A model generated the notes under the pieces. That model did not search any database. It was given only the letters and a program-made list of their open reading frames with translations, and was not told where the DNA came from. Of a stretch of DNA of 64,000 bases, positions 5,010 to 64,000 are shown in pieces. Every line of letters begins with the position of its first letter. Within the stretch, counting starts at the first letter, position 1. Origin of the DNA: Ostreococcus lucimarinus (lineage: Eukaryota); the NCBI GenBank assembly GCA_000092065.1, contig CP000600.1. The stretch is one strand, 5' to 3'. Both the position numbers and the translations under genes were made by a program.

Positions 5010-5165
5010 CGCGCGCGCGTCGCCGCGTCGAATCGACGCGATCGCGCGTCCGCGCGTCGCGTTTTGCGTCGAAAGTTTTCAACAGAATGCAATCCGTCAC
5101 AGCTCGACGCGGCGACGCGTCGTCGACGCGCGCGCGGACGCGCGCGCGACGGCGCGGTGGACGCG

Positions 5166-42157: not shown

Positions 42158-44995
42158 ATGTCGAACCAAGCGTCGCGCGCGCTTCGCGCGCCGGTGGCGC
42201 CGTTCGGCGACGCGCCCGCGCCCGCGGGTTACGTCCCGGGACTCGGTCGCGGCGCCGCGGGGTTCACGACGCGGAGCGACATCGGGCCGGGACAGGTCGC
42301 GGCGGCGGGGGACAAGGTGCGGGAACGAAACGACGACGACGACGCGACGACGCGACGACGCGACGACGCGACGGAGGCGCGATGCGATGGACGCGCGCGC
42401 GGATGATGCCGGCGAACGACTGACGAGGACGGCGCGCGCGAGTAGGAGCGAGACGAGGACGGCGGGAGAAGCGGCGACGGCGGCGAAGACGGATTGTTCG
42501 GCCGGGACGCGTCGACGTACGACGACGACGACGCGGAGGCGGATGAGATATGGGCGCAGATCGATGAGAGGATGGACTCGAGGCGGAGGGACGCGCGAGA
42601 GCGGCGGGAGAGGGAACAGATGGAAAAGTTTAGGGATGAGAATCCGAAAATCGTGGAGACGTTTCGCGACTTGAAGCGCGGGCTGAAGGACGTGTCGTAC
42701 GCGGAGTGGGACGCGATTCCGGATATCGGGGACTACACGATCAAGAAGAAAAAACTGAACGTGGGGTTCATGCCCGCGCCCGATACGCTGCTGGCCAAGG
42801 CGTTGGCGGAGAAGGAGACGGTGAACACGGCGGCGGACGCGGGCGGCGAGCAAGACTTGACGGCGGTGGGCGAAGGTCGAGGGACGGTTTTGGGGTTGAA
42901 GCTCGACCGATTAAGCGATAGCGTCACGGGTCAAACGACGATCGATCCGAAGGGGTACTTGACCGATTTAGGCTCGCAGAAGATCACGAGCGCGGCGGAG
43001 ATTTCTGACATTAAAAAGGCGCGTTTGCTGCTCAAGAGCGTCATCAACACCAACCCCAAGCACGGCCCGGGGTGGATTGCGGCGGCGCGTTTGGAGGAAC
43101 TCGCGGGTAAATTACAACAAGCGCGAGTGTTCATGCAAAAAGGGTGCGAGGAGTGTCCGAAGAACGAAGACGTGTGGATCGAGGCGGCGCGGTTGAACAC
43201 GCCGGAGAACGCCAAGGCAATTTTAGCGCGCGGCGTGCAAACGTTGCCGAATTCGGTGAAGATTTGGATGCAAGCGGCGCAATTAGAGATTGAAGATGAG
43301 CGTAAGCGGCGCGTGTTGCGGCGAGCGTTGGAGAACGTGCCGAATTCTGTGCGATTGTGGAAGGCGCTCGTGGACTTGAGCGCCGAGGACGACGCCAAGG
43401 TGTTGCTCGCGCGCGCGACGGAATGTTGTCCGCAGCACGTCGAACTTTGGCTCGCGCTGGCGCGTTTGGAGACCACTGAGAACGGTCGTAAGGTGCTGAA
43501 CAAGGCACGCGAAACATTACCGCGCGAGCCTCAGATTTGGATCACCGCGGCGAAGCTCGAGGAGGCGAATGGGAACGAAAAAATGGTGGAGAAAATCATC
43601 GCGCGCGCGGTCAAGTCGCTCAAATCGCACGGCGTCACCATCGATCGCGAGAGTTGGATCAAAGAAGCGGAAATCGCTGAAAAAGCCGAACCACCGTCGA
43701 TTGCGACGTGTCGGGCGATCGTCAAGGCGACCATAGGCGAAGGCGTGGAGGAAGAGGACAAAAAACGCACTTGGAAGGCGGACGCGGAGGAGTGTATGAA
43801 GCGCGAGAGCGCCGAGACCGCGCGCGCGATTTATGCGCACGCGCTAGATTCAGGATTTTCGCACAAGAAGGGTTTGTGGATGAAAGCGGCGATGTTGGAA
43901 AAGCGATTCGGTACGCCTGATTCCGTCGACGCCGTCTTGCGCAAGGCGGTGACTTTTTGCCCCAACGCTGAAATCTTGTGGCTCATGGGCGCGAAAGAGC
44001 GCTGGCTCAGCGGCGACGTCACGCGAGCGCGCGAGATTTTACAATCAGCCTTCGACGCCAACCCGGACTCGGAAGAGATTTGGCTCGCGGCTTTCAAATT
44101 GGAGTTTGAAAACGGCGAAATTGATCGCGCGCGCATGTTGCTCGCCAAGGCGCGAGAACGTTTGGCCGACTGTGCGCGGGTTTGGATGAAATCTGCGCTT
44201 GTCGAGCGCGAGGCGGGTGATGAACAAGCCGAACGCAAGCTTCTCGATGAAGGCATCGAAAAGTTTCCGACGTTTTGGAAACTTTGGATGCAACTCGGGC
44301 AACTTGAACAGCGCGCCGGGGAGAAGCGCGCCGAGCAAGTCCGACACGCGTACACGCAAGGCACGAAGAAGTGCCCGAACGCGATTCCGTTATGGATTGC
44401 GCTTTCAAGTTTTGAGATGCGCAGTGGGAACGCGTCCAAGGCGAGAATCATTCTCGAAACCGCGCGCGCGAAGAATCCCTCCAACGAACACTTGTGGCTC
44501 GCCGCCGTACGTCAAGAGCGCGAGAGCGGAAACATCCAGCTCGCCGAGAGCACGATCGCGCGTGCACTGCAAGAGTGCCCAACGAGCGGTTTGCTCCTTG
44601 CCGAGTCCGTGCGATTTGCGCCTCGCCCGCAAAGGAAATCGAAATCTGTCGACGCGTTGCGGCGGTGCGACAACGATCCGTACATCATCGCCGCCATCGC
44701 CATTTTGTTCTGGGCCGACCGCAAACTCGACAAAGCCCGAAGCTGGTGGAACCGCGCGGTGACAATAGCACCCGACATTGGTGACCACTGGGCGTCGTAT
44801 TACAAATTCGAACTCCAAACCGCGGGCGAGCAAGCCGCCCAAGCCGTCGCCGAGCGTTGCGCGCGGGCCGCTCCTCGCCACGGCGAGAATTGGAGCGCGA
44901 TGCGCAAGCGCGTGGAGAACTGGCACGATCCCGTGATTGAAATTTTGAAAAAAGTTGCCGCCGGGCAAGACGAAATGGCGTACGCGACGAAATAG
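42158..44995 (+). CDS. PRP6: Pre-mRNA-processing factor 6 (PRP6/PRPF6, U5 snRNP, HAT/TPR repeats); two exons, approximately join(42158..42316, 42446..44995).
   Basis: Exon 1 '[26 protein letters not shown]' matches human PRPF6 '[26 protein letters not shown]'. Two in-frame stops (42404, 42443) are removed by an intron with donor GTGCGG at 42317, branch 'cgactgac' and an in-frame acceptor at 42445 (42448 or 42457 are also possible). Exon 2 '...[32 protein letters not shown]' matches '[30 protein letters not shown]'. The full ~830-aa HAT-repeat body aligns, for example '[10 protein letters not shown]', 'SVRLWKA', 'ARAIYAHAL' and the C-terminal 'RHGENW'. Confidence 0.85.
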
Positions 44996-46574: not shown

Positions 46575-47441
46575 CTACGGCCCCGGACGCTCGGGCCTCG
46601 GGCCGAGTTCGCCGCGAGGATCGGTGACAGTGATGTCGCCCTCTCGCGGCTCGTTGTGTAATTTGTTTTGAACCGCGTCAGCTTCGACGCGCTCTTCAAG
46701 GGCGGTCAAGAGACGATCGACGACGACGTCGACGGGGGCGCCGTCGGCGTCGTCGCGCGCGCCGAGCGGGACGGTGATGTCTGCCTGCTTGTACATCGTT
46801 TCGCGCGTTTCTAACAGAGCGTTGATCTTGGCGACGATGGAATCGATCGTCGGTTGTTCCTCGCCGCTGGTGTCGCCGGAGAGTAAGGGACGCTTTTCGA
46901 CGCCGTCGGCGAGGACGCGGCGCGCCAAGAGCTCGGAGTCGCCGTGCAAGCGCACGGTGACGCCGTTGTGCAGGTGCATCCAATTCGTCTTCTCGCACAC
47001 GATACCACCGCCCGTAGATATGACGCATCGCTTGTACGCCGCGACTTCGGCGAGGATCATGCTCTCGATGGCGCGAAATTCGCTCTCGCCCGCCTCGGCG
47101 AAGAGCTCGCTCGGCGTCTTCTTTGTCACGCTCTTGATGAGCTCATCCGTGTCCAAGTGATTGTACCCGAGCGCTTTCGCCAGCGACGCCCCGACGGTGG
47201 ACTTTCCGGACCCCATGATACCGATTAAGAACAGCGACGTGTCTGCGAGCTTGTTCGCGACGGTACGACCGCGCAGAAGCTGCGCGGACTCGGACGCCGA
47301 AGCCGAGGCCGAGGACGCCCGGCGACTGTCTCGAGCGCGTCGCGTCGCGATGACGCGGTGCTTGAGCGTTTGCGTCGGTGCGGAACATTGCGTCGACGGC
47401 GAAGCGACGGCACGACGAGCCGCGAGCGCGGCAGACGACAT
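46575..47441 (-). CDS. SK: Shikimate kinase, plastid-targeted.
   Basis: Walker A 'GIMGSGKSTVG'. 'LDTDELIKS', 'VISTGGGIV' and 'LHGDSELLARRV' match shikimate-kinase motifs. S/A/R-rich transit peptide 'MSSAALAARRAVASPS...'. ORF sequence upstream of 47441 overlaps the 3' end of the SSD gene and is rejected. Confidence 0.8.
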   Translation of the reverse strand: MSSAALAARRAVASPSTQCSAPTQTLKHRVIATRRARDSRRASSASASASESAQLLRGRTVANKLADTSLFLIGIMGSGKSTVGASLAKALGYNHLDTDELIKSVTKKTPSELFAEAGESEFRAIESMILAEVAAYKRCVISTGGGIVCEKTNWMHLHNGVTVRLHGDSELLARRVLADGVEKRPLLSGDTSGEEQPTIDSIVAKINALLETRETMYKQADITVPLGARDDADGAPVDVVVDRLLTALEERVEADAVQNKLHNEPREGDITVTDPRGELGPRPERPGP

Positions 47442-47509
47442 GATGTCGCGCGTTTGAAAGTGAGGATGAAGATGGGGACAAGGACCTTGAGGTTTTCGGC
47501 GCTCGGGGC

Positions 47510-50500
47510 TCACGCGAAGAGACTGAGCGCTATTGGTAGAAAGACGACGCCATTCGCCACGGCGAAGAGCAAAATCACGCACCATTGACTGAAAAAGTAC
47601 ACGCGGAAGTACTCGTACCGCGCGAACGCGCTCGGGATGACACCAAGGAACGTGGTCACTCCAGCGTTGAACAAAGCGGGAGCGATGGATGCGAAGGCGG
47701 CGCCCGCGCGCCGGTCGGAAGAGAAAAACGCGCGGGACATGTGAGCGATGAATTCATTCACGACACCGGTCGAAATGATCAAGTTCGCCATGGATGCGCC
47801 GTTGAGCTTGACATTGAACCGACCCATGGCGCCGAAGAGCTCAGCTTGTGTGAACGCGAGCGTCGCAGAGGCCACCATAGTCGCTCGAACGTCGCCGCGA
47901 AAAGCAACGAACATAATGATTGTGGACGTCACGAGTCCTATGATGAGCGCTCGCCACGTGTTTGACTTGATGTTCAAGTACTGTTCGTTCATCGCATACA
48001 GCGCTACGTCGAATGGGAAGGCTCGGGCACCTCCTCGCGCGACGATGTCAGAATTCTTCAACGCGCTTCGAGCCTGGCGGATGTGCGCGAGTTTATCGTC
48101 AACGTCGAAAACGTCTTCGACGTAAAACAACAGCCTGGCGCTCGTGACGATTGACGCGTTGCTTCCGAGTGTTGTGAACGCGCGCGAAATTTCGCCGCGC
48201 TGACCGCCGGCGAGAAAAGCCGGGAACTCGCGAACGAATGCGTCTTCGTTGTAAATCAGTCGATGAGGGCAGTAGCATCGACTTCGCTCGCGGCTCGCGC
48301 CTTTGTGGAATTCGCACCGCTTCGATTGCGTCTGAGGTACGTGTGCTAAGCACTTTACCATGCATGTAAACGTTTGATTCTCGTCGAGCGCGTCCGCAGC
48401 GCACGAATCGTAAGGTTCCGCCGCCCTCGTGGCGTCGTAGTACCAACGCGTGTCGTTCAGCGAACACGAATGCCCGCCCGCAACTCTCGATTCCGCGTAT
48501 TCGGTGTAGTAAATCATGAAGTTGGTTGACCCGTGCGTTACGTCGACGTGCGCGACGTCGAGAAAGTCGCGCTCGAGTTCTCGCAACGCCACGGCGTACC
48601 GAGCAAAATCGACATTCGAGACGAAGACGAAGACAGGATACGTGGCGAATCGATGCTCCATCTCCGCCACGAACGGCGCCATGTAAGAATCGCTCGGTAT
48701 GACGTCCCGCATTTCGAGTCCAAGGCGTACTGTTGGAATGCCGGCGATCAAATACACGGCGAAGACACCATACATGGCGAGCACCGCAAGGCGTAACGCC
48801 GTGCTTGCGCGTGGTGCAGCAATCAAACGCTCACGCCACCGCACAAACGGCTCATACACCGCCGATGAAATCTTCGCAAAGGAAGAGTCGCGACGGAGCG
48901 GTGTCGTGCATTCGACGTCTTCTGATACCCTCCTCGCCTCAGATGCGCTGCGTCGCTCGAGATGTCGATACAGAATGCCAGGGAAAACCAACAACGCGAC
49001 GATGTAGTTGCATGCCACTGCGCACGCTATTTGGATACCAAAGTTTCTCACCGCGGGCACCGGCGAAATGGCGCCGAGCAAGAACGCGGCAAAGTTCATC
49101 GCGCTGGACAGTGTCACCGATGTACCACCATCGCGTAAAGTGCGAACGAGTATGTCTTCATTAGAACTTATTGAATCACCGTCAACGAATGAATCTTCAA
49201 GTTCTGCCGTAGCCGCCGCGGCGTGCGACGCGAGCACAAAGAAATCATTCACGCCCAAGCCGAGCGATAAGAACGGCAAAACTTGAAGCGTGATGGCGTT
49301 AAATGTCACGCCAGAGATTCGCGAGAGCGCGGCACTCAATCCTAAAGACGCCCACGTACTTAAAGCGACTACAGAGACGCCTTCGACAGCTGCTCGAGGG
49401 CCACACGCAGCGTTCGGGCTGAGATGGAAATATGTCACGACGTAAAAGGCGACGGTGAAGTAACCAATGAAGAGGAGCACGAAGGCGCCCCTCGACGCGG
49501 CGGCGATGATATCCTCAGTACTTCGTTGTGACATGTAAGCGATTGAAATGTGCTCGTAATTCGCAATTTTGGCGTCGATTTGCGAGAGCCAAAGTGATTC
49601 CCAACCCAACAGTAAATCTTCAGCGTCCTCTTTCGAGAGTTCGCGGCGTTCGTGTGCGGGAACCCAAATCAAAGTCGATGCCGTTGACGCAGATTTGGAC
49701 GCGCGCTTCGCCGGTGGAGTGACAACACTCGTATTCCTACCGCAAACATCGAAACTAGGCGTCGAGAATCCGCTCAGCGTACAAAACTGTACGATTTGTC
49801 CGACGTCATCGCGAGCGAAGAGGGACTCGCACGGTCTCGATCTTCCTCCGCAGTGAAGATCCCCGCAGTGACATTTCGACAAGGCAAAAGTCTCCAAGCT
49901 CGCACAACACTCGCTCGCAGCCGTGTAATTACCCTCGGCGATCAATGGACATTTCGTTTGCAGCGAACGTAGCTTGAATCCACACTCGAAGACGTTTGTC
50001 ACTGGCGTTGAAGCGCTCAAGTCTTCGTAGTAATCGTCTTCGATTCCACTCGTCGAAGACTTGCGTAACGTTTCTCCGTTCGGAAGTCTCACACACTGCG
50101 AATCGAACGAAATTCTTGCTATTCCGCACGTAGTGAACACTTGATTCCCGAGCGCGAACAACGTAGCGTCGCTCATCCACAACGTCTCGACGCACGGATG
50201 CTCGCGTAGTCTCGCCATATACTCGCAGCACGTGGGTGGCTGCTCCGCGTCGCCCTCCGGAACGCAACCGTATTCCAACACCGAAAACAAATTAAACGTT
50301 TCTATGCACGAGCAATCTTCCAACGATGGCGTCCCCGCGCGACAGCCCAACACGTCGACCGCCGACGCCTGCGTCGGCGTAAAAGTCGTTCGCACCACGC
50401 CGCGAGCGGCCAACGAGGCGGCGTCGCGCGTTTGAAACACCACGCGCATCGCATCTAACCCGTTCGCGTCTTCTCGCAATCCCGAAAACAGTACTTTCGG

Positions 50501-51061
50501 GGGAGTCGCGAGATTGAACCATTGTTTGCACCCTCGAGCGAAAGACTGATTGAAATCTTTCTCGAAATCAAATGATGCCACGCTCGGGCGAACCGAGTAC
50601 GACGCCGCGAACGCATCGTTCTTCTCAGCCCCTCCCGGCGCGCTCACCGCACCTTCCGCGAAACAATCCAACGGCGTTATTTGAAAACACGGCGTGTGCG
50701 GTTCGGAATCGACGTACTTGTAGCAAAAATCGTGCAGGGTGTACGACCCCGCCGCGGACGGCGCCTCCAAACCGTACATCCAGTCGTGCCAGTCCTTGAG
50801 TTCTAAGAACGCCTCCCTCGACGCCAACGTCGGCGCTCGCTTCGCCGTCACGACGAACGCCTGCGTCCTATAGTCACCGAACGCGTCTTCGTACGTCTTT
50901 ACCTCCTCCCGCGCTCGCGCGTCGACCCACAACTTCAGCGCGTCGACCTCGACCCTTCCCCAGAGCGCGCCGAACCCCCCCGCGAGCGCGCACGCCGCGA
51001 CCACCGCTCCGCACCGCGGACGCACCGCGCACGCCGCGACGCACGCTCTTATTTTTTCCAT
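47510..51061 (-). CDS. Patched/NPC1/Dispatched-like sterol-sensing-domain (RND-superfamily) membrane protein.
   Basis: 1183 aa. Large Cys-rich luminal domain, then a first 5-6 TM bundle with the SSD signature '...ITLQVLPFLSLGLGVNDFFVLASH...SAMNFAAFLLGAISPVPAVRNFGIQIACAVACNYIVALLVFP'. Second luminal loop, then a second TM bundle 'LIIGLVTSTIIMFVAF...TLAFTQAELFGAMGRFNVKLN...LIISTGVVNEFIAHM...FLGVIPSAFA'. Confidence 0.75.
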   Translation of the reverse strand: MEKIRACVAACAVRPRCGAVVAACALAGGFGALWGRVEVDALKLWVDARAREEVKTYEDAFGDYRTQAFVVTAKRAPTLASREAFLELKDWHDWMYGLEAPSAAGSYTLHDFCYKYVDSEPHTPCFQITPLDCFAEGAVSAPGGAEKNDAFAASYSVRPSVASFDFEKDFNQSFARGCKQWFNLATPPKVLFSGLREDANGLDAMRVVFQTRDAASLAARGVVRTTFTPTQASAVDVLGCRAGTPSLEDCSCIETFNLFSVLEYGCVPEGDAEQPPTCCEYMARLREHPCVETLWMSDATLFALGNQVFTTCGIARISFDSQCVRLPNGETLRKSSTSGIEDDYYEDLSASTPVTNVFECGFKLRSLQTKCPLIAEGNYTAASECCASLETFALSKCHCGDLHCGGRSRPCESLFARDDVGQIVQFCTLSGFSTPSFDVCGRNTSVVTPPAKRASKSASTASTLIWVPAHERRELSKEDAEDLLLGWESLWLSQIDAKIANYEHISIAYMSQRSTEDIIAAASRGAFVLLFIGYFTVAFYVVTYFHLSPNAACGPRAAVEGVSVVALSTWASLGLSAALSRISGVTFNAITLQVLPFLSLGLGVNDFFVLASHAAAATAELEDSFVDGDSISSNEDILVRTLRDGGTSVTLSSAMNFAAFLLGAISPVPAVRNFGIQIACAVACNYIVALLVFPGILYRHLERRSASEARRVSEDVECTTPLRRDSSFAKISSAVYEPFVRWRERLIAAPRASTALRLAVLAMYGVFAVYLIAGIPTVRLGLEMRDVIPSDSYMAPFVAEMEHRFATYPVFVFVSNVDFARYAVALRELERDFLDVAHVDVTHGSTNFMIYYTEYAESRVAGGHSCSLNDTRWYYDATRAAEPYDSCAADALDENQTFTCMVKCLAHVPQTQSKRCEFHKGASRERSRCYCPHRLIYNEDAFVREFPAFLAGGQRGEISRAFTTLGSNASIVTSARLLFYVEDVFDVDDKLAHIRQARSALKNSDIVARGGARAFPFDVALYAMNEQYLNIKSNTWRALIIGLVTSTIIMFVAFRGDVRATMVASATLAFTQAELFGAMGRFNVKLNGASMANLIISTGVVNEFIAHMSRAFFSSDRRAGAAFASIAPALFNAGVTTFLGVIPSAFARYEYFRVYFFSQWCVILLFAVANGVVFLPIALSLFA

Positions 51062-52652: not shown

Positions 52653-55169
52653 CTACGGCATGAGCGATGGTGCGGCCTCGACGGCGCGCTTCTTGGACTC
52701 GATCACGAGACGCTTTTCGGCGAAGAACATGCGCTCGAGCTCGGGGGCGATGTCTTCCATCGTGGGACGCTCGAGGGCGTCGGCGCGCCAACATCGAGCG
52801 ATGACGGCGATGTATTCTTCGGGAAGACGCACGGCGAACTTTGAGGCGTCATCGAGCGACGGACGCTCGCCGCGAAGTAGAGCGGCGACGATTTGCATCG
52901 GTGATAAACCGCTGAAGGGATCTTCGCGCGTGAGACACTCCCACATGACGACGGCGAAACTGTACACGTCAACGGCGGTCGTGTACCGAGGCTGGCCTTC
53001 GAGGAGTTCGGGAGCCATGAACTGGTACGTGCCGACGAGCGACATCATGCCGCCGCTCGTCGACGCGCCGGTGTGAAATTTCGACAACCCAAAATCTCCG
53101 AGTTTTATGGATCCGCCGTCGTCGATGAACAAGTTTCCAGACTTGACGTCGCGGTGGATGATGTCCGAAGCGTGCAAATACACCAAGCCTTTCGCGGCCT
53201 CGCTCATCCATTTCAGAACCTTAAACGCCGAAAGGGTCTTGTTCGGGTTGTGCAGGTACGCGTATAGCGATCCTTTGTCGCAGTAGTCCATGATGATGCA
53301 TAGATTCGGCGGTGCTGTGGATGCGCCGATGAATTGCACGATGTGACGATGTCGCAAACGCGTGAGGAAAGAAAGCTCGCGCTTGAACTCAGCCAAACCG
53401 CGCTCGTCGCTCACGTCGCTCAGCACGCACAATCGCTTGATGGCAACGTCTGTTCCTCTATACTTACCGCGGAATACTTCGCCAAACGCGCCGCGACCGA
53501 TTTGTCGACCAAACTCTAAATGGTCGAGTGGAATCTCTTCAAAGTCGTTTTGTCGCGACGACGGTGTGGTCATCGGGCTTCGCGGCGGCTTTTGCGGCGC
53601 CAAAGGCGATGGCGTCGACTGCGGCGAACGTTTGCTTTCGCTCTCGTCTAAAGCATCGGTGAGCGTGCGCACGGCGAACGGATCGACGTACGTCGAAGCA
53701 GACGCTGGCCCGCTTTGAAGCGGCGTGAACTCGAGCGGCGCCGCAAACGCGTCCAAATCAAAATCGCTGGGTTTTCGACGATGACCGGGGCGCGCGCCCA
53801 AATCGAGCGGCGGCGCCAAGCCGAACGGATTATAATGCTCGTTGTCATCATTGTCGTCGAACTTGATCAGAGGCGGAATCTCCCCCACGGCGATTATCTG
53901 CGGCGCCTGCGCCGCCAGATCGGCGTCCATCAAGTTTTCAAACGTCGGATCCAACACGTGTTTCTTAGCCGGCGCGTTGGCGCTTAAAATCTCCTTAATA
54001 TCCGTCTCCTTCTCTAAGAACTTTGGTTCCGTTTCACCGAGCGTATGCACGATTTCCTGCCTCAGGAACGCCTTGCGTAACGCCACGCGAAAGCATTCTC
54101 GCAACGCGACGTGCTCGGCGCGAAACTTTTCGTTGTCACCTTCGGACAACCTATTCTCTTCCGCCAACGTCGCCGCAACGAAGAGCGCAGCGGCGTACGC
54201 TAAATCCGCCTCGCGCAACGCCAACCGCGCGACGAAACCGATGAGATCGGTCCATTGGAACTTGTCGAATTCGTTCGTCGTCGCCGCGACGGCTTCGGGC
54301 AAGTGTCGCGCGGCGAGCTCGACGACTCGTCTCGCTTTTCCCGCCACCGCGATGAGCGCGCACAAACTGACCGAGGAAATTGGATCGTGCATCCCGATAT
54401 CATCGTCCTCAAGCGTCTCCACGCGTGCGTCCACGGAGTAATTGTTCTCAAACGCCACGAAGAAGCGATGAAACTTACTCTTCGCTCGAATCATCGCCGC
54501 GTACGGCGCCACCAGCCCCGCGCACGCGTCGAACCCTTCGCGCTCGTAAAACCCCAAACCCTTCGTAAACTCCGCACTCGCCTTGCGTCTCGCCCCTCCG
54601 AGCGCCCCGAAATCGCTCGAATACGCCTCCAAAGGCTCATCCATCAATTTTTCTCGCCACGCGTACGTCGGATGCAAAATCGACGAGCTCCCGTGTTGCT
54701 GCAACGCGTGCACCACTCCACACATCCGCAGCGCCGACACCGAGCTTCGCAACACATCCACTCTCGCCAACGATTTCAGCATCATCTCTATGTTCTCACT
54801 CCGTCGCGTCGCGTCTTCGCACCACGTCGCTCGCACCAATCGTTCGACGTGCCGTCGCTTCGGCGCTCGTCCCTCGCTCGAGTGCATCGTCGCCTTCACG
54901 CACGAGTACTCGATCGGCGTCAGGCTCCGCATGTACGACTGGAACTTTTCATTGAACGTGCCGACGTCGTCCGCGAACGACGGCGTCGGCGTCAGCGCGC
55001 CGCTGAAACTCGACGCGCTTTCGTGATGATGATGTTGGTGACTCAAACTCGTCGTCGCGCCGTCGCTCGACCGCGTCGGCGCGCGCGCGACGTCGCCGCG
55101 ATCGCCGACGGCGTCGCTCGCGCCGTCGGTGCCCTCGCGCGCGTCGAAGACGCGCTCGGCGCGCGACAT
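52653..55169 (-). CDS. Serine/threonine protein kinase (TKL, Raf/CTR1/EDR1-like) with a long N-terminal regulatory region. Start ambiguous: 55169 or internal M at ~54932.
   Basis: C-terminal kinase domain: GxGxxG 'IGRGAFGEVF', 'VAIKRL', 'HRDVKSGNLFID' (HRDxKxxN), 'DFGLS' and 'APE' ('FMAPELL'). The first ~100 aa of ORF 52653..55472 overlap the MMS19 5' end and are rejected. Confidence 0.8.
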   Translation of the reverse strand: MSRAERVFDAREGTDGASDAVGDRGDVARAPTRSSDGATTSLSHQHHHHESASSFSGALTPTPSFADDVGTFNEKFQSYMRSLTPIEYSCVKATMHSSEGRAPKRRHVERLVRATWCEDATRRSENIEMMLKSLARVDVLRSSVSALRMCGVVHALQQHGSSSILHPTYAWREKLMDEPLEAYSSDFGALGGARRKASAEFTKGLGFYEREGFDACAGLVAPYAAMIRAKSKFHRFFVAFENNYSVDARVETLEDDDIGMHDPISSVSLCALIAVAGKARRVVELAARHLPEAVAATTNEFDKFQWTDLIGFVARLALREADLAYAAALFVAATLAEENRLSEGDNEKFRAEHVALRECFRVALRKAFLRQEIVHTLGETEPKFLEKETDIKEILSANAPAKKHVLDPTFENLMDADLAAQAPQIIAVGEIPPLIKFDDNDDNEHYNPFGLAPPLDLGARPGHRRKPSDFDLDAFAAPLEFTPLQSGPASASTYVDPFAVRTLTDALDESESKRSPQSTPSPLAPQKPPRSPMTTPSSRQNDFEEIPLDHLEFGRQIGRGAFGEVFRGKYRGTDVAIKRLCVLSDVSDERGLAEFKRELSFLTRLRHRHIVQFIGASTAPPNLCIIMDYCDKGSLYAYLHNPNKTLSAFKVLKWMSEAAKGLVYLHASDIIHRDVKSGNLFIDDGGSIKLGDFGLSKFHTGASTSGGMMSLVGTYQFMAPELLEGQPRYTTAVDVYSFAVVMWECLTREDPFSGLSPMQIVAALLRGERPSLDDASKFAVRLPEEYIAVIARCWRADALERPTMEDIAPELERMFFAEKRLVIESKKRAVEAAPSLMP

Positions 55170-55212
55170 GACGACGCCGTCGCCGCAGATTGCGACGCTC
55201 CGGCGTCGAACA

Positions 55213-58200
55213 ATGGCGACGCGCGACGCCCTCGCGGCGTTCTGCGCCGCGTCGGCGCGCGACGACGACGCGACATCGCTCGCGGACGACGTCGCGCTCG
55301 CCGAGATCGCGCGCGCGATCGCGGACGGCGCGCGCGCGGTTTTAGACGTCGTCGTCGACCTGGAAGGATTTCTCACAGCGACCGAGCCAAAGCCGCGGGC
55401 GCGGGCGACGGAAATCCTCGCGCACGTCGCCGAAGAGTGCGCGATGACGCTGGATGATCGCGCGGTGCGCACGCTGAGCGCGTTCTTCGCGTCGAGGTTG
55501 AGCGATTTCGCGTCGACGGCGAGCGCGGCGCGCGGCGCCGAGGCGTTGGTGAAGCGAGCGAACGCGGAGGCGATCGAAGCGACGTCGAGGGCACTTTTCG
55601 CGGAGTGCGACGTGCAGGGGTTGAGACAAAGCGATAGGGAAGCGTGCGTGCGGTTGGCGATCGAAATGCTGCGGAGTGCGCACGCTGGGGCGTGCGCGCG
55701 CGGGGCGGGGGACGGGGAGCCGAACGAGGCGTTGGCGAGAATAATCGGCGCGTTCGATGGGGAGAAGGATCCTAGGTGCGTGTTGGGATTGTGTGAGGTG
55801 TGGACATTGTTGCCAGGGGCGTTTGAGCGGTTCGGGGAGGGTGGAAAGGCGGTGTACGAGGAGAATGCGGAGGAATTGTACGACGTCGCGGCGAGTTACT
55901 TTCCAGTGAGTTTCAAGCCGCCGAGAGGGGATTCGATTAAGATTTCTCGTCGCCAACTCGCGGAGGCGGTCGAACGCGCGATGACGGCGTCACCAACATT
56001 CGCACCGTGGGCCGTCGCGCACGCGTTGGAGAGTTTGAACCCTGAACTAGGTCCGGGGAAGATGGCGGACGCCGCGCGCGCGGTTCGCGCGATGGGCGAA
56101 CGTTTCGGCGCGAGCGTCATGGAAGAATACATGGGTATCGTTTGGCAAGCCATGCGCGCCGCATTGGCGCATCCCAACGCGACGAAGATGGAAGAAGACG
56201 ACGACGTGCAGGCGACGACGCCGATGGCGGTGATGACGACGATGTTTGCCAGCGAATTCACTCGCGGCACGCTCGCGCGCGCGGCGTTGACGGATCAATG
56301 CGTGCGCGACGCCGAAGTGACTTTGCGTCGCATGGCGAACGACAGCTCGTCGGATGACGTCGACGGCGCGTGCGCGATGGAGACCTCAGACGAGGGGTGC
56401 TGTGGCGGTGGTTGCGGCGGTGGGAGTAAGTCGTCCGGCGAAGAAGCGGCGAGGGGAAAACTCGTCGTTGCGACGGCGAGTCGCGTGCTCGGTGCGGTTG
56501 CCGCGGCGACCCCCACACTCGCGCATGATGTCATACACGGCACTTTAAAGTCACTTCTCGACGCCGCGAAGATTCCACGCGAAATAGATGGACTTCATTC
56601 GTCCAAAGCGGCGTACTTGGCTCTCATTCTTGCCACGCCCGCGCTCGGCGGCGCGTTGGATTGCTGCGAACGGAACGCCGAATCAAGTGTGCACATGAGC
56701 GTCTTGGACGATGAAAGTGAACGGTTGGTGGGGCTGTTTGCCGACGCAGCGCTGGGAAAGATCGAATCCCCGAGCTTTGACGAAGGCATCGTTTTAGGTT
56801 TAGCAGGATTGCACATGTTGTGCAAGTTTCCATACAGATTCGGTCTGGCGAGCGCTGAGTCGCGAGTCGCCGTGGCGAGCAAGCTATTCGATGCGATGAT
56901 GGCGCAACACGTAAACGAGTCCGAGGCCGATATCGAAGTGCGCATTGAGCGTTCGATCGATGCGCTCGTCGCCGCAGCGAGCGGTGCGGACGCAAAACTC
57001 GTTGACGCGATGTCGACGGGCGCCGTCGCTCTCCTTGCAGACAAAGTGACAGTTACGAATTTGCAAACCGTCGAAGCGACGCGAGCGATTCGTGCCCTCT
57101 GCGCCCTCGCGGCAGTAAATCAGATGATTCGAAACGACGTCGCGCGATTGTTTTGCGGCGTTGTGCGTGATGCTATCGAGATTGGTTCGCCGAATGCCGA
57201 GGATCTGGTGTCCGCGATGTGCCGCGACGACGACGGTGTACTGACGCGGTTTGTTTCATCCGACGAAGCACAGCGAGCGTGCGCCGATCTCACCACATTT
57301 TGTCTCGCGCGTGATCCTGCCACAACTGCAGAGTCCACCGTGCGCGTCGTCGCGAGCGCGGTGGCGAATTGTGACGACGCGACGCAAGCGCGATTCGCCG
57401 CCGAAGCCGTCGCGCTCTCGCGCGAAAAGCCGCTGATGGCTTGCGCGGTGATTTGTGGACTACGACCGCAAGCGGCGTTCGAAGCGACACACATGGTGGC
57501 CGCTCTCGACGAATTAACGCGCTCGCGCGGCGACCGAGGATTCTCGATGTTCGTCGCCGCCGCCGTCGGTTCGGCGACGCACAAATTCCCGAGCGTGGAC
57601 TTCGCGCCACCTATGGAAGACTTGACGGACGAGCGCACGACTTTCGTTCTCGGTGCGTGCTTGCGCGCGCGAGCGATGCGTCGAGACGATTCGTCGCCAT
57701 CTGATGCGCTGGTTTCGTGTCTCGTTCGCGCTCTCGACGACAGTTCGTCGCCTGAAGCGTCGAGAGGCGCGGCGATGGCGTTGAGCATGGCTGTGGGATT
57801 CAGCGCTGCGCATCGCGACATCGGGCTAGGTTTGAAGTCTTCGACTCACGCGAGCGAAAAGTTCCTCGCGTGTCAACGTTTCTTCACGAAAGTTGCGCCG
57901 ACTTTGATCAAGGGCGCGTACGAAGCCGTGGGCGCGAAGCGCTTGTCGAGATCTTACGCAGTCGTCAAGCTCGCCAGCGGCGTCGCCCCATCCGTGGCAC
58001 TCAGTTCGCAGTTCAACCTGTTCCCGCTGTTACCAGACGTGTTACACGCACTCACCGTCGGTACGCTCGCCGGTGACGACGACGCCGTGCGCGCGGCGCT
58101 CCTCCTCGTCGGCGCGCGACTCGCCGAGCCCGCACTGTACGATGCCGGCAGCGAAGGCGCGACGGAGCAGAACGCCGTCGCTCTCATCGACGCCCTGTGC

Positions 58201-58419
58201 GCCATCGCCACTGCAACGAGCACAATGTCCATGGAGTGTCGGGAGCACGCCCTCGATGCTCTCGTCGCGGCGTCGACGCTCAAGTTCAGCGCCGTGTACC
58301 CGAGTCGCCGGCGCGCGCTCGACGCCGCCGTCGTCGCGTGTGACGATCCTAAACGTCGCGTCCGCCGCGCCGCCGCGCGAGCGCGACAGGTATGGCTCAA
58401 ATTAATGACCTCTACTTAG
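55213..58419 (+). CDS. MMS19: MMS19 (HEAT-repeat cytosolic Fe-S assembly targeting factor) homologue.
   Basis: N-terminal 'LEGFLTATEPKPRARATEIL' matches human 'LGSSLENPEPRTRARAIQLL'. 'DGEKDPRCVLGLCEVW' matches 'DGEKDPRNLLVAFRIV'. 'ASYFPVSFKPPRGD' matches 'SCYFPIDFTPPPND'. C-terminal 'KRRVRRAAARARQVW' matches 'KKRLVRKEAVSARGEW'. About 1070 aa of HEAT-like repeats. An alternative start lies at 55168. Confidence 0.8.
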   Translation: MATRDALAAFCAASARDDDATSLADDVALAEIARAIADGARAVLDVVVDLEGFLTATEPKPRARATEILAHVAEECAMTLDDRAVRTLSAFFASRLSDFASTASAARGAEALVKRANAEAIEATSRALFAECDVQGLRQSDREACVRLAIEMLRSAHAGACARGAGDGEPNEALARIIGAFDGEKDPRCVLGLCEVWTLLPGAFERFGEGGKAVYEENAEELYDVAASYFPVSFKPPRGDSIKISRRQLAEAVERAMTASPTFAPWAVAHALESLNPELGPGKMADAARAVRAMGERFGASVMEEYMGIVWQAMRAALAHPNATKMEEDDDVQATTPMAVMTTMFASEFTRGTLARAALTDQCVRDAEVTLRRMANDSSSDDVDGACAMETSDEGCCGGGCGGGSKSSGEEAARGKLVVATASRVLGAVAAATPTLAHDVIHGTLKSLLDAAKIPREIDGLHSSKAAYLALILATPALGGALDCCERNAESSVHMSVLDDESERLVGLFADAALGKIESPSFDEGIVLGLAGLHMLCKFPYRFGLASAESRVAVASKLFDAMMAQHVNESEADIEVRIERSIDALVAAASGADAKLVDAMSTGAVALLADKVTVTNLQTVEATRAIRALCALAAVNQMIRNDVARLFCGVVRDAIEIGSPNAEDLVSAMCRDDDGVLTRFVSSDEAQRACADLTTFCLARDPATTAESTVRVVASAVANCDDATQARFAAEAVALSREKPLMACAVICGLRPQAAFEATHMVAALDELTRSRGDRGFSMFVAAAVGSATHKFPSVDFAPPMEDLTDERTTFVLGACLRARAMRRDDSSPSDALVSCLVRALDDSSSPEASRGAAMALSMAVGFSAAHRDIGLGLKSSTHASEKFLACQRFFTKVAPTLIKGAYEAVGAKRLSRSYAVVKLASGVAPSVALSSQFNLFPLLPDVLHALTVGTLAGDDDAVRAALLLVGARLAEPALYDAGSEGATEQNAVALIDALCAIATATSTMSMECREHALDALVAASTLKFSAVYPSRRRALDAAVVACDDPKRRVRRAAARARQVWLKLMTST

Positions 58420-59306: not shown

Positions 59307-59966
59307 ATGTTCGATCTCAAGCAACTGTTCGGCTTAGCGCCGACGCCCGAACAAAAAACCAAAGAGTGCAAGCTCAAACTGCGCAAACTCCAGCGCGAAC
59401 TCGAGCAACAGATTCGCGACGTCGAGCGCGCGACGACGAAGACGACGAGAGAGATCAAGCTCTGCGCGAAGAGAAACGACCAGAAAAGCGCGCGCGCGCT
59501 GGCGAAAGAGATCGTGCAGGCGAGGAAGGCGATTGAAAAGTTGTACACGAGCAAGGCGCGCGCGAGCTCGGTGGAACGCGCGCTGACCAGACGGGCGGCG
59601 ACGCAGACGAGCGTAAAAACGCTCGAACGCTCGAGCGAAGTGCTGAAAGCGATGAACGCGCTGGTGAAAGTGAGCGCGGTGCGCGATCAGGCGAGAGAAT
59701 TGAGCCGGGAGATGACGAGGGCGGGGATCATGGAGGAACTCGTGGAGGAGGCGCTGGCGGATGATTTAGAGGACGAAGACGAGACGGAGCGCGCGATTGA
59801 GGATATTTTAAAGGAAATCGCGGGGGAGGTCGTGTTACCCGACACCGGCGTCGAAGAGAAAGTCACGCGCGAGGCGACGATCGCGGTGGAACCGACGACG
59901 ACGACGACGACGACGACGACGGAAGATTTAAAGGCGCGACTCGAGCGCATGCGGCAAGAGGCGTAG
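59307..59966 (+). CDS. VPS24: ESCRT-III subunit CHMP3/VPS24 (Snf7 family).
   Basis: 'LAKEIVQARKAIEKLYTSKARASSVERAL' matches 'LAKEMIRSRKAVSKLYASKAHMNSVLMGM'. 'SSEVLKAMNALVKVSAVRDQARELSREMTRAGIMEELVEE' matches 'STEVMKAMQSLVKIPEIQATMRELSKEMMKAGIIEEMLED'. C-terminal MIM-like 'LKARLERMRQ'. A poly-Thr run (T x9) at 59890-59920. Confidence 0.8.
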   Translation: MFDLKQLFGLAPTPEQKTKECKLKLRKLQRELEQQIRDVERATTKTTREIKLCAKRNDQKSARALAKEIVQARKAIEKLYTSKARASSVERALTRRAATQTSVKTLERSSEVLKAMNALVKVSAVRDQARELSREMTRAGIMEELVEEALADDLEDEDETERAIEDILKEIAGEVVLPDTGVEEKVTREATIAVEPTTTTTTTTTEDLKARLERMRQEA

Positions 59967-60199: not shown

Positions 60200-62032
60200 A
60201 TGACGCCGCGCGCGCTCGCGAACGCGTCTCCGCGCGTCGCGCGCGGGCGTCCGCGCGCGTCGACGCGCCGCGATGGACGTCGACGCGCGACCGCGGGCGC
60301 AGGGTTCGTTACGCGGACGCGTCGACGCCGCGTCGCGCGCGCGGCGAACGAGGACGCGGCGAGCGAGCGAACGCGCGCGAACGCGTCCGCGATGCCGTCG
60401 AAGACGCTTCGCGGGATGTTCGACGCGGTGCGAGGGTTCGTGCTGGAACCGTCGCGGGACGGCGGCGAAGCGTCGAGCGGCGGCGCGAGCGGCGGCGCGA
60501 GCGCGAGCCGACTGCGAAAAGTCATCGGATCGTTCGTCATGGACGTTTCGCAATCGTTCGATGAGCTCACGGACGCGCCGTCGATGACGACGGACGGCGC
60601 GGCGAATTTGAGGACGACGGCGGCGCGGCGAAGACGGGCTCGGACGCTCACGGCGGAGCGACGGCGACGAAGACGCGACGCGAAGACTCGGGATGAGCTG
60701 AGCGCGCTCGCGCCCGAGGTTGAGGTTCTGACGTTGAACGCGGTGCAGAGACGCGCGATCGGGTTGGATTGCGATGAGATGCACTTTGTGCCCGTCGGCG
60801 ACGCGAGCGGTTGGAGCGCGGCGTTGTTGCGATACAAGGCCAAGGAAGGCGTGGAGACGCGAAGACCGATCGTCATGGTGCCCGGATGCGCGTCAAACGG
60901 GATGACATTTGATGTCGATAAGACGGTGAGCTTACCCAGGTATCTCACGGAGCGCGGGCACGAGGTTTGGATCGTGGAGACGCGCGGCGTCGGGTACGCG
61001 CGCAGATGGACGAGACCGAGGTCGGATTACGTCGAGGTCGCGCCGCCGACGGACTCGGTCGGCGAAGGAAGCGGTGGTGGAATAGAAATACCGATGATGC
61101 GATCGGTGGGATTCGGGCTCTGGGACTTCGACACGCTGTTGAATGAAGATTTGTTTTGCTCGTGCGAGTACATCGCCGAAGTCTGTCGCCGTGGGGATTT
61201 GGCGGGCGTCGGGCATTCGATGGGTGGAATGCTCCTCGCCTCGCTTGCGGCCGTAGGACCGAAAGAAAGCGACATCGGGGTGAATTGTTCGTGGTCCATG
61301 ACTCGCGTGTGCACGATGGCGTCGTGTTTGGAATGTTCCTCGGAGAGCGACCCGGAATCGCCGGCGTCGGTGTACGCGCGTTTCGCCGCCTTGGCGGGCC
61401 ATCTCCCGCGAGGACTCACCGCGAATCCGAGCACGACCACCGTGCACTTACCAATAGCGCCCGCAAGCGTAGCCACCGCGGAGGCGTTTCAATTCGTGCT
61501 CGGTCCACCGCCTCCCATCGACGGCGACGGCGCGTCGGCGCCCGATCCCGCCAAGGCGTTTTGGAGAAATTCAGTCTCCCCGGTGACGTGCCATCCCGGC
61601 GCCACGGACTCGGAATTCCTTCGACGACTACTATTACGAGGCTTCAACAACGTCCCATTGTCGTTGCTGATTCAAATGGCAACACTGTTCACTCCCGGAG
61701 GCATGCGCAGCCGCGACCCATCCATGGGCGTCGACGAATCGTCGAGCGTGCGCGCCAGAATCGCTCGAGACAGCGAACGATTAAAGTACCTCGACGAGCT
61801 CCAGCGCGCGCGCGTGCCTGTTCTCGCCATCGCCGGGGACGTGGACCCGATTTTTCCCCCGAACCAAGTCAAAGCGTACGCCAGAAAAGTAGACGCCGAG
61901 TACCACGTCTTCGGCGACGCGTCGTCGCCGCGCGACGACCCGGACACCCATTACAGCCACTACGACGTCATCTGTGGCCGACACGCCCCTCACAAAGTCT
62001 TCCCCATAGTCGCCGAGTTTCTCGAGCGCTGA
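60200..62032 (+). CDS. Alpha/beta-hydrolase (lipase/esterase-type) with a long R/A-rich N-terminal extension, possibly a transit peptide. The true start may be the internal M at ~60392 ('MPSKTLRG').
   Basis: Nucleophile elbow 'VGHSMGGMLLAS'. 'RPIVMVPGCASNGMTF' loop. C-terminal 'VPVLAIAGDVDPIFP' and catalytic His region 'HYSHYDVICGRHAPHKVFPIVAEFL'. Confidence 0.6.
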   Translation: MTPRALANASPRVARGRPRASTRRDGRRRATAGAGFVTRTRRRRVARAANEDAASERTRANASAMPSKTLRGMFDAVRGFVLEPSRDGGEASSGGASGGASASRLRKVIGSFVMDVSQSFDELTDAPSMTTDGAANLRTTAARRRRARTLTAERRRRRRDAKTRDELSALAPEVEVLTLNAVQRRAIGLDCDEMHFVPVGDASGWSAALLRYKAKEGVETRRPIVMVPGCASNGMTFDVDKTVSLPRYLTERGHEVWIVETRGVGYARRWTRPRSDYVEVAPPTDSVGEGSGGGIEIPMMRSVGFGLWDFDTLLNEDLFCSCEYIAEVCRRGDLAGVGHSMGGMLLASLAAVGPKESDIGVNCSWSMTRVCTMASCLECSSESDPESPASVYARFAALAGHLPRGLTANPSTTTVHLPIAPASVATAEAFQFVLGPPPPIDGDGASAPDPAKAFWRNSVSPVTCHPGATDSEFLRRLLLRGFNNVPLSLLIQMATLFTPGGMRSRDPSMGVDESSSVRARIARDSERLKYLDELQRARVPVLAIAGDVDPIFPPNQVKAYARKVDAEYHVFGDASSPRDDPDTHYSHYDVICGRHAPHKVFPIVAEFLER

Positions 62033-62137
62033 TTTCGACGTTTGTAATCGCATCGTATCGAGTCGTCGCGCTTCGCTCGCCTAACCGCCGCGTCGCCGCA
62101 CACCGCGCCGCTCGCGCGTCCCGCGCGCGGCGCTCGC

Positions 62138-63550
62138 ATGCGCACCGCGTCGCGCTCGAACGCGAGTGTGCAAACGGTCACGCCCGCGCGTCCCGTTCGC
62201 TCGCCCGCGCGTCGCTCGCGTCGCGCGATGACGGTCGCCGAAGCCGTGCCGCCGCCCCCGAAAGCGAACCAAAGCCAACGCGGCGCGTCCTGGCGCGCCG
62301 AACACCGCGAAGCGATCCTGAAGGGCAGCGCGAGGACGCACGTCAGCGACGCTTCGCCGACGGTGATCGATTTCTTGACGAACGACGACGCGCTGGTGGG
62401 ACCGAGGAAGTGGTTGGGCGCGGCGACGCGCGCGGCGACGGGGGACATTTTCGGCGTCCCGAGTCACGCGCGACGGGTGCTCAAAGTGAGCCCTCGAGCG
62501 GGGACGGTCGAATTGATCGGTGACGAACTCACGCCGACGCACTTTAAATTCCTGCGCGGGATCGATGGGAAGAATGGGAAGTGTTACGGTTTGCCGGCGT
62601 GGGGCGAGGGCGTGTTGAAAATCGACGCCGAGACGGGAGAGACGAGCATGATTGGAAAGTTGCCGGGAGACATGAAGTGGCAGTGGCACGGCGGTTCGTT
62701 AGGTCGCGATGGAGCGCTGTACGCGGTGCCGTGCAACGCGTCGTCCGTCCTGCGGGTGTGCACGAAGACGGAGGAGGTGAGTTTCATCGGCGGCGACGTG
62801 ATTTCGCCGATGAAGAATAAGTGGTACGGCGGCATTCAAGCGCCGGATGGTTCGATTTACGGCGTGCCGTATTGTTCGGATAAAATCATACACATCGTTC
62901 CAGAGACACAATCGGTGGAGATGCTCGAACTACAAGGAGCGACTTTGGAGCCGAATAGCTACGCTTGGCACGGCGGAATCTTAGCGCCAAATGGCTGCAT
63001 TTATTGCTTTCCCAGTCACGCTCGTCGCGCGATGAAGATTGACTGCGCCACGCGCACGTGCACGCTCATCGGCGACGATCTCGGAGACAAGCGGTACAAA
63101 TTTGGCGGCGGATGCGTCGGCCCCGACGGCGACTCGGTGTACGCGTTTCCGAGCGATTACAAGGCGGTGCTGAAAATCGACACGAGAACCGACCAGACTT
63201 CTTTAGTGGGCGAAGGACTACCCGGAATGCTCCCAGACTTGCTTAACAAGTGGCAAAACGGTGTTCTCGCGGGCGACGGTTACATATACGGAATCCCGTG
63301 CGACGCACCGTCTGTGATCCAAATCGACCCCGGGACGGATTCGGTGCACTTCCTCGGCAACCTGGGCGACTTACCCGACAAATACCAAGGCGGTTTCTTA
63401 AATCGCGACGACGGCGTCGTGTACTGCATCCCCGAAAACGCTGAAAACGTCATGCGCATCTGCCCCGTCGGCAGCGACGCGCACCCACCGCCCCGCAGCG
63501 GCTTCGATCACGACGCTCGTCCCGAAAGTCGTCGCGCGGCGGCGTTGTAA
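62138..63550 (+). CDS. Uncharacterised repeat protein with eight ~46-aa repeats (predicted beta-propeller). Likely start is the internal M at 62228 ('MTVAEAVPPPP').
   Basis: Consensus 'KWxGGxxAPDGxIYGVPxxAxxVLKIDxxTxxVxxIG'. Examples: 'KWYGGIQAPDGSIYGVPYCSDKIIHIVPETQSVEMLE', 'AWHGGILAPNGCIYCFPSHARRAMKIDCATRTCTLIGDDL', 'KWQNGVLAGDGYIYGIPCDAPSVIQIDPGTDSVHFLGNL'. I do not recognise it as a named domain. Confidence 0.55.
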   Translation: MRTASRSNASVQTVTPARPVRSPARRSRRAMTVAEAVPPPPKANQSQRGASWRAEHREAILKGSARTHVSDASPTVIDFLTNDDALVGPRKWLGAATRAATGDIFGVPSHARRVLKVSPRAGTVELIGDELTPTHFKFLRGIDGKNGKCYGLPAWGEGVLKIDAETGETSMIGKLPGDMKWQWHGGSLGRDGALYAVPCNASSVLRVCTKTEEVSFIGGDVISPMKNKWYGGIQAPDGSIYGVPYCSDKIIHIVPETQSVEMLELQGATLEPNSYAWHGGILAPNGCIYCFPSHARRAMKIDCATRTCTLIGDDLGDKRYKFGGGCVGPDGDSVYAFPSDYKAVLKIDTRTDQTSLVGEGLPGMLPDLLNKWQNGVLAGDGYIYGIPCDAPSVIQIDPGTDSVHFLGNLGDLPDKYQGGFLNRDDGVVYCIPENAENVMRICPVGSDAHPPPRSGFDHDARPESRRAAAL

Positions 63551-63663: not shown

Positions 63664-64000
63664 ATGCTCCCGTCCTGGCTCGCCGGGAGCTCGAGCGATG
63701 AGTACAGCGGCGACGAAAGCGAAGGCCCGCGATCGCCGTCGAGGTTGAAACAGATCGGTTCGACGGTGAAACACGAGGCGAAGGACCGCCTGACGAAGCT
63801 GGCGCGAAGCGGAACCGCGAGCACGGCGGTGGATGGACTCACGGATTTCATCGCGGACCCGAAATCGCACGCGGCGGCGACGAAGATTGGAAATTTGAAG
63901 GAAAAGTCCAAGACGCTGTGGACGAACGCGATGCGGGACGACGAGGCGAAGATTGAAAGGACGAAAAACGCGACGAAAAAGGCGCTGGAGATCACGGAAA
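63664..64000 (+). CDS. Hypothetical protein, 3'-partial (runs off the window end).
   Basis: ATG at 63664. Open to the end of the window: 'MLPSWLAGSSSDEYSGDESEGPRSPSRLKQIGSTVKHEAKDRLTKLARSG...'. Diverse composition with GC-rich third codon positions. Confidence 0.3.
   Translation, partial: MLPSWLAGSSSDEYSGDESEGPRSPSRLKQIGSTVKHEAKDRLTKLARSGTASTAVDGLTDFIADPKSHAAATKIGNLKEKSKTLWTNAMRDDEAKIERTKNATKKALEITE

Follow-up and report, generated by a model that had tools for sequence, protein, structure and literature searches.

Background

NHL repeats form six-bladed beta-propellers, such as the sensor domain of M. tuberculosis PknD, the NHL-derived design Pizza6 and the Drosophila Thin/Brat-type proteins. 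The protein we consider here is encoded by one gene at positions 62138..63550 (+ strand) of a 64-kb stretch of Ostreococcus lucimarinus DNA (contig CP000600.1), and we call that whole stretch the window. Compared as a family profile, it has detectable similarity to the NHL propellers: E=6.6e-5 for Pizza6, with marginal values for Thin (0.014) and PknD (0.015). The window sequence alone finds nothing significant in the PDB. The blade layout is also shared with NHL, with a small-residue inner strand, a Gly turn followed by an (I/V)Y strand, and a hydrophobic third strand. However, the window protein has eight blades, not six. Its motif is K-W-x-G-G ... Y-x-x-P ... V-L-x-I-D, and its family carries His, Tyr, Arg and Gln residues that are specific to individual blades.

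Other described propellers differ as well. Vgb, the streptogramin B lyase, is a seven-bladed enzyme, whereas the window protein has eight blades and is 10-12% identical to it. The fusion partners of the family also point away from a Vgb-like antibiotic-resistance lyase. Eight-bladed propellers are known in other superfamilies: the WD40 proteins Notchless/Rsa4, Fbw7/Cdc4, TBLR1 and ODA16, the PQQ-like BamB, cd1 nitrite reductase/NirF, and the designed Tako8, Ika8 and Bagel8. Identity to these is 5-14%, there is no relationship at the sequence level, and the window protein lacks WD and PQQ motifs. The likeness is analogous or very distant only. We argue that the window gene encodes a stand-alone copy of a conserved eight-bladed propeller module of the DUF6923 repeat type.

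An eight-bladed propeller

The original prediction was that the protein consists of eight tandem repeats of ~46 aa with a strong consensus. The repeats hold up. They are 44-50 aa each, run from aa 88 to ~456 and have a mean pairwise identity of 31%. When repeats 1-4 are aligned with repeats 5-8 by BLASTP the score is 104 bits (E=2.9e-33), while 200 shuffled pairs average 15 bits and reach a maximum of 24. The repeats begin with the anchors KWLGA, KFLRG, QWHGG, KWYGG, AWHGG, KFGGG, KWQNG and KYQGG, in that order. After each anchor comes DG-x-(I/V/L)Y-x-x-P, and after this (V/I)(L/I/M)-x-(I/V); the overall consensus is K-W-x-G-G-x-L-x-x-D-G-x-I-Y-x-x-P-x-x-A-x-x-V-L-x-I-D-x-x-T. The motif first quoted was an idealised one, though. 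The exact string APDGxIYGVP is found only in repeat 4 and the exact VLKID only in repeats 2 and 6, and the largest departures from the quoted consensus are in repeats 1, 2 and 8. Tandem Repeats Finder detects no ~138-bp period in the DNA of the gene. This implies that the duplication is ancient, and a recent duplication at the DNA level is rejected.

The prediction also left a choice between a propeller and a beta-solenoid. AlphaFold2 was run on an alignment of 62 homologues and gave a confident model (mean predicted local distance difference test score, pLDDT, 89.3; predicted template modelling score 0.85). Residues 88-442 form eight four-strand antiparallel blades round a central axis (strands from DSSP), and there are no stacked coils, so the solenoid can be dropped. 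Blade 8 has three C-terminal strands (416-422, 427-432 and 438-442). An isolated N-terminal strand at aa 76-80 (TVIDF; 62363..62377, +) is its putative fourth, outer strand. From the strand layout of the model it most likely completes blade 8 and closes the ring as a 'velcro'.

The blade boundaries rest on the repeat alignment, the model and family conservation, and all of them lie on the + strand. Blade 1 (aa 88-133, 62399..62536) has the family-invariant residues K91, L93, G94 and P108, and blade 2 (aa 134-177, 62537..62668) has K137, L139, R140 and P153. In blade 3 (aa 178-225, 62669..62812) the invariant residues are W181, W183, H184, G185, P198, N200 and A201; in blade 4 (aa 226-273, 62813..62956) they are K228, W229, Y230, G231, G232 and P244. 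Blade 5 (aa 274-318, 62957..63091) keeps W277, H278, G279, G280 and P292, and blade 6 (aa 319-368, 63092..63241) keeps Y320, K321, G324, Y335, P338 and D340. N370, K371, W372, Q373 and P387 are invariant in blade 7 (aa 369-412, 63242..63373). Blade 8 (aa 413-445 plus aa 76-80, 63374..63472 for the former) has conserved K415, Q/E417, G418 and P432.

It is worth considering whether this could be a chance open reading frame (ORF) in GC-rich DNA, with no real gene or repeat behind it. Long but spurious ORFs are indeed common in the other frames and strands of this GC-rich DNA. We regard this explanation as refuted, with practically no chance of being right, by the self-alignment (E=3e-33), the 92 homologues found by search, 8,935 profile matches, the confident fold and the coding-type base composition. 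The GC content at third codon positions is 0.745, and that of two neighbouring genes is 0.71-0.76. A public assembly collection has an identical 470-aa protein called from contigs in 790 of its blocks, which rules out an assembly artefact. The orthologues, at 61-83% identity, are colinear with the 470-aa product. The ORF list, the third-position composition, these metagenome copies and the orthologues thus agree on a complete, single-exon, uninterrupted coding sequence of 470 aa plus stop.

Family assignment

The family was originally taken to be undescribed, and this must be revised. The window protein scores 25.6 bits (E=1.3e-5) against Pfam DUF6923 (PF21959), just short of the curated gathering cut-off of 27. 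The family consensus scores 65.8 bits (E=6.7e-18). DUF6923 is matched by 55 of the 62 homologues at E<=0.01 (best E 1.1e-15), the homologues reach 79.6 bits, and an Alexandrium homologue is named 'DUF6923 domain-containing protein' in UniProt. By these profile scores the family clearly belongs to DUF6923, and the window sequence alone is a marginal case. On sequence grounds we place the window protein in a repeat family that is catalogued but unstudied and is distant kin of the NHL/YVTN/Vgb-type blades. The 234-position Pfam model covers only part of any member in the scans we ran. It misses both the fixed eight-blade unit and the blade-specific signature that sets the eukaryotic module apart from phage and bacterial repeats. 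The family consensus also scores 60.7 bits against PF16819 (DUF5074), another family of unknown function; this is matched by four homologues and not by the window protein. There is no match for the window protein in NCBIfam or PHROGs.

The prediction that the protein is not Kelch, WD40 or NHL is borne out by the Pfam scans. The NHL repeat (PF01436) has no match even at E<=10, and there are eight blades rather than six. Kelch_6 reaches 16.7 bits against a cut-off of 25.3, for one blade only, with weak matches in 8 of the 62 homologues. WD40 has no Pfam match; the likeness is structural only, at 5-12% identity. The Virginiamycin B lyase family (PF24684) is rejected too: the window protein, with its eight blades, has no match to it, and the best homologue scores 30.9 bits where the cut-off is 50.

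Some annotations of the family need care. SepRS_C (PF18006, 31 positions), the C-terminal domain of O-phosphoseryl-tRNA synthetase, cross-matches the 'DG-x-IYG-x-P' hairpin, which in the window protein is at aa 237-248 (62846-62881). It matches 27 of the 62 homologues. Some of these exceed its 26.9-bit cut-off (34.3 bits for P0139), and the consensus scores 39.8 bits. This cross-match looks like a source of false annotations. Automated names disagree with each other and are unsupported. P0033 is a 'streptogramin lyase' according to the Joint Genome Institute (JGI), and 438-aa members of the P0012 cluster (P0120) are named '3'-phosphoadenosine 5'-phosphosulfate (PAPS) 3'-phosphatase'.

A fixed unit with a blade-specific signature

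Each blade has invariant residues of its own: K91/L93; K137/L139/R140; W181/W183/H184/N200; K228/Y230; H278; Y320/K321/D340; N370/K371/Q373; and K415/Q417. Every one of them is kept in 84-95% of the 62 homologues. They are constant (Q or E at position 417) across the eukaryotic homologues, down to ~25-35% identity. When 58 longer family members were aligned to the profile, the full signature was present in 36 of the 42 long domain matches. In the same table it is absent from seven proteins (P0143, P0151, P0158, P0165, P0166, P0244 and P0261). P0143 has domains of bacterial or phage type, namely DUF5907 and a weak carbohydrate-binding module. The other six, which have no organism names, are judged to be phage- or bacterial-type mainly by their repeat pattern and N-termini. 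An ORF on a phage-like contig (L005) has uniform KW-x-GG repeats that lack the blade-specific residues. We argue that, since the signature is kept in the eukaryotic members and is absent from the phage- and bacterial-type repeats, the eukaryotic module is a fixed eight-blade evolutionary unit with orthologous blades and not a variable array of repeats.

The model suggests where these residues lie. L93, L139/R140, H184, Y230, H278 and Q373 each occupy the second or third position of an innermost strand. Y320/K321 and N370/K371 are in D-A loops, while N200 and D340 are in B-C loops. In the standard four-strand meander the start of strand A is on the same face of the propeller as the D-A and B-C loops. 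From these positions and this topology we infer that the signature residues are grouped on that face, around the opening of the central channel, where they would line a single asymmetric pocket. The histidines of Pizza, in the work of Voet et al. from 2015, reportedly face the central axis. H184, Y230, H278 and Q373 share a position that corresponds, in the profile alignment, to the Ser/His of TPSG/TPHG in Pizza6-SH. Putting His there is how Pizza was turned into a propeller that binds metal and is catalytically active (PMC7337062); metal is also coordinated by Pizza-derived histidines (PMC6327176).

Distribution

A lineage-restricted family was the original guess, and the searches do not support it. 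Out of 1.84 billion representatives, the profile matches 8,935 clusters at E<=1e-3, of which 2,281 remain at E<=1e-30. The matched proteins include giants with up to 14 matched stretches. Only a minority of matches have organism names, which makes the list of named homologues incomplete: Pycnococcus, Alexandrium, Polarella, Symbiodinium, Amoebophrya, Chromera, Chlorarachnion and Triparma. The eukaryotic spread takes in green algae, dinoflagellates, chromerids, a chlorarachniophyte and a bolidophyte.

Phages and at least one bacterial-type protein contain looser versions of the repeat. P0202 has the same repeat type together with a prokaryotic N-terminal methylation (prepilin-type) motif, and a giant virus carries it in a collagen-repeat protein. 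Vibrio and Cylindrospermopsis phages carry it as well. In Vibrio phage 2E1 (L009, KX507045.1) the repeat gene, at 4845-6629, lies between the tape-measure gene and a 'hemagglutinin'. The ORF on the L005 contig, at 4341-6017, is near a virion structural protein (phrog_1645). Both genes belong to modules for the tail or virion structure and have no annotation beyond hypothetical; their products are candidate receptor-binding proteins. No relative turned up when bacterial and archaeal genomes were scanned with green-algal patterns, but those patterns are specific to the eukaryotic signature and this is not evidence of absence.

Domain fusions

The fusion survey covered 33 multi-domain proteins that bear the signature. 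In 19 of them the partner is an Fe(II)/2-oxoglutarate (2OG) dioxygenase: a PhyH-like region, N- or C-terminal to the propeller, in 14 and 2OG-FeII_Oxy in five. TylF/Methyltransf_24 is fused in three more. PIP5K, an arylamine N-acetyltransferase and a Class I (lysine-methyltransferase-like) methyltransferase each occur once. Dinoflagellate proteins also join the repeats to an Ion_trans channel domain. Three from Polarella glacialis (P0139, P0140 and P0386) are ~1,220-1,255 aa long and have several repeat stretches N-terminal to Ion_trans, which suggests that they are propeller-gated or propeller-anchored ion channels.

What the propeller might do

Because one conserved module is fused, in other protists, to many modifying enzymes and channels, we favour a role in recognition or sensing. 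The settings of the repeat type in phage tail regions and in collagen-headed viral proteins point to recognition too. The propeller would be a non-catalytic module that binds a specific ligand or substrate, either a small molecule or a protein motif, in its asymmetric pocket. The bound ligand would be presented to a partner enzyme or sensed on its behalf. In the alga that partner would be encoded separately, and a Fe(II)/2OG dioxygenase seems the most likely candidate. Taken together, from sequence and model, we consider that a recognition propeller with a separately encoded modifying enzyme has an even chance of being the right description.

Several points weigh against it. An invariant set such as His/His/Tyr/Arg/Asp/Gln is equally characteristic of active sites. 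Fusions elsewhere are no proof that the stand-alone protein works with a partner, and the 64-kb window encodes none of the domains found as fusion partners. The phage proteins do not have the eukaryotic signature, so the support they give to binding extends to the repeat type at large and no further. The clustering on one face comes from secondary structure and general propeller topology. The Pfam entry for DUF6923 has no function attached to it, and our literature search found no paper that mentions DUF6923 or PF21959; broader searches returned nothing relevant. The protein was called uncharacterised at the outset and that description is correct.

One can imagine the propeller as an enzyme in its own right (for example a lyase, lactonase or hydrolase), with the ring of H184, H278, Y230, R140 and D340 used for metal binding or acid-base catalysis. 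In the fusion proteins it would then carry out a second catalytic step. Vgb lyase, the SMP30/PON-type lactonases and cofactor-holding eight-bladed propellers all use residues of the central channel for metal binding or acid-base catalysis. The invariant residues are polar and blade-specific, as this scenario would have it, and the aligned Pizza position is the one that gains metal binding and catalysis on changing to His. Foldseek places Vgb/streptogramin B lyase near the top (template modelling score normalised to target 0.73-0.77), with SMP30 and lactonases also found. A few homologues have the weak Vgb_lyase Pfam matches given above, one has the JGI lyase name, and the fusion partners are typical tailoring enzymes, which makes a protein of a multi-step pathway conceivable. 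However, no enzymatic propeller family reaches its Pfam threshold, and there are eight blades where Vgb has seven and SMP30 six. Very different partners, ion channels and PIP5K among them, suit recognition better than a fixed chemistry. The use of the repeat type in phage tail-region and collagen-headed viral proteins does not fit an enzyme well either. We consider catalysis by the propeller somewhat unlikely.

Another possibility is a generic protein-protein scaffold or assembly factor, comparable to the WD40 adaptors or BamB. The invariant residues would be mainly structural, there would be no specific small pocket, and the protein might be targeted to an organelle through its N-terminus rich in R, A, S and P. 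But folding does not call for polar conservation that differs from blade to blade, and the closest orthologues do not keep the basic N-terminal extension. We think a scaffold is unlikely.

Termini and surroundings of the gene

The N-terminal aa 1-50 (62138..62287, +) are R/A/S/P-rich in composition and disordered in the model (pLDDT ~50). They contain no hydrophobic signal peptide and vary in length among orthologues, two of which (P0005 and P0006) start ~14 residues before a conserved 'ARGASWRAE' motif. By composition this extension is a candidate chloroplast or mitochondrial transit peptide, but such a role is not established, given its poor conservation. An alternative in-frame ATG, M31 at 62228-62230, gives an N-terminus closer in length to the short P0005 and P0006. 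On those lengths either M1 or M31 may be the true start codon. Directly upstream of the annotated ATG, at 62104-62137, there are ~3 copies of a GC-rich 11-bp repeat, CGCGCCGCTCG. A helix at aa 52-67 (62291..62338, +; DSSP on the model, alignment) follows the 'RGASWRAEHR' motif conserved in green-algal orthologues. The C-terminal tail, aa 446-470 (63473..63547, +), has low confidence in the model and is poorly conserved among orthologues.

The window is apparently a compact, intron-poor fragment of a green-algal nuclear genome. Its TM9SF protein, used as a marker, fits a green alga: the nearest named relatives are Pyramimonas, Cymbomonas, Pseudoscourfieldia and Nephroselmis at 67-69%, and the matches at 86-88% are all metagenome proteins. 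Long overlapping ORFs on other frames and strands are by-products of DNA with 62% GC; Arg/Ala-rich artefacts overlap real genes at 61156-62523 (+), 62081-62689 (-), 61990-62448 (-) and many other places. Other genes in the window encode EMP70/TM9SF (36831-38558), a PRP1-like protein (42494-44992), shikimate kinase (46575-47585), a sterol-sensing/Patched-like protein (47510-51061), a protein kinase (52653-55472), MMS19 (55129-58416), Snf7 (59307-59963) and an alpha/beta hydrolase (60200-62029). Downstream on the + strand is a gene for a 701-aa uncharacterised protein with no Pfam match on record, which starts at 63664 and runs past the window end at 64000 (L001 6527-8632). In the assembly collection the neighbours of the identical propeller protein are likewise eukaryotic genes: MMS19, Snf7, alpha/beta hydrolase, aldose epimerase and longin/synaptobrevin. 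There is no second member of the propeller family elsewhere in the 64 kb, and no RNA genes were found in the window.

Significance

Taken alone this is one more beta-propeller from a domain-of-unknown-function family, and fairly ordinary. What is new is the blade-specific invariant set of the eukaryotic proteins (R140, H184, N200, Y230, H278, Y320, D340 and Q373) and the fusions to dioxygenases and methyltransferases. These are useful leads, but they are unlikely to surprise a specialist. Two annotation problems are flagged, since the Pfam cut-off for DUF6923 just misses the window protein and SepRS_C cross-matches the repeat.

The practical value is threefold. The DUF6923-type repeats appear in eukaryotes as a fixed eight-bladed unit, the invariant residues form a testable set that is a likely marker of a functional site, and the fusion link to Fe(II)/2OG dioxygenases and methyltransferases is a first handle on a family of thousands. 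A bolder reading, which we hold to be quite unlikely, would join these points into an unrecognised, protist-wide ligand-recognition (or catalytic) domain. It would have one conserved His/His/Tyr/Trp/Arg/Asp pocket at the channel. PhyH-like/2OG dioxygenases and methyltransferases would rely on the domain as their dedicated partner for binding substrate, and some dinoflagellate ion channels would use it as their sensor. If true, this would suggest that marine algae handle a common metabolite or protein mark, which might be a charged osmolyte or a modified residue.
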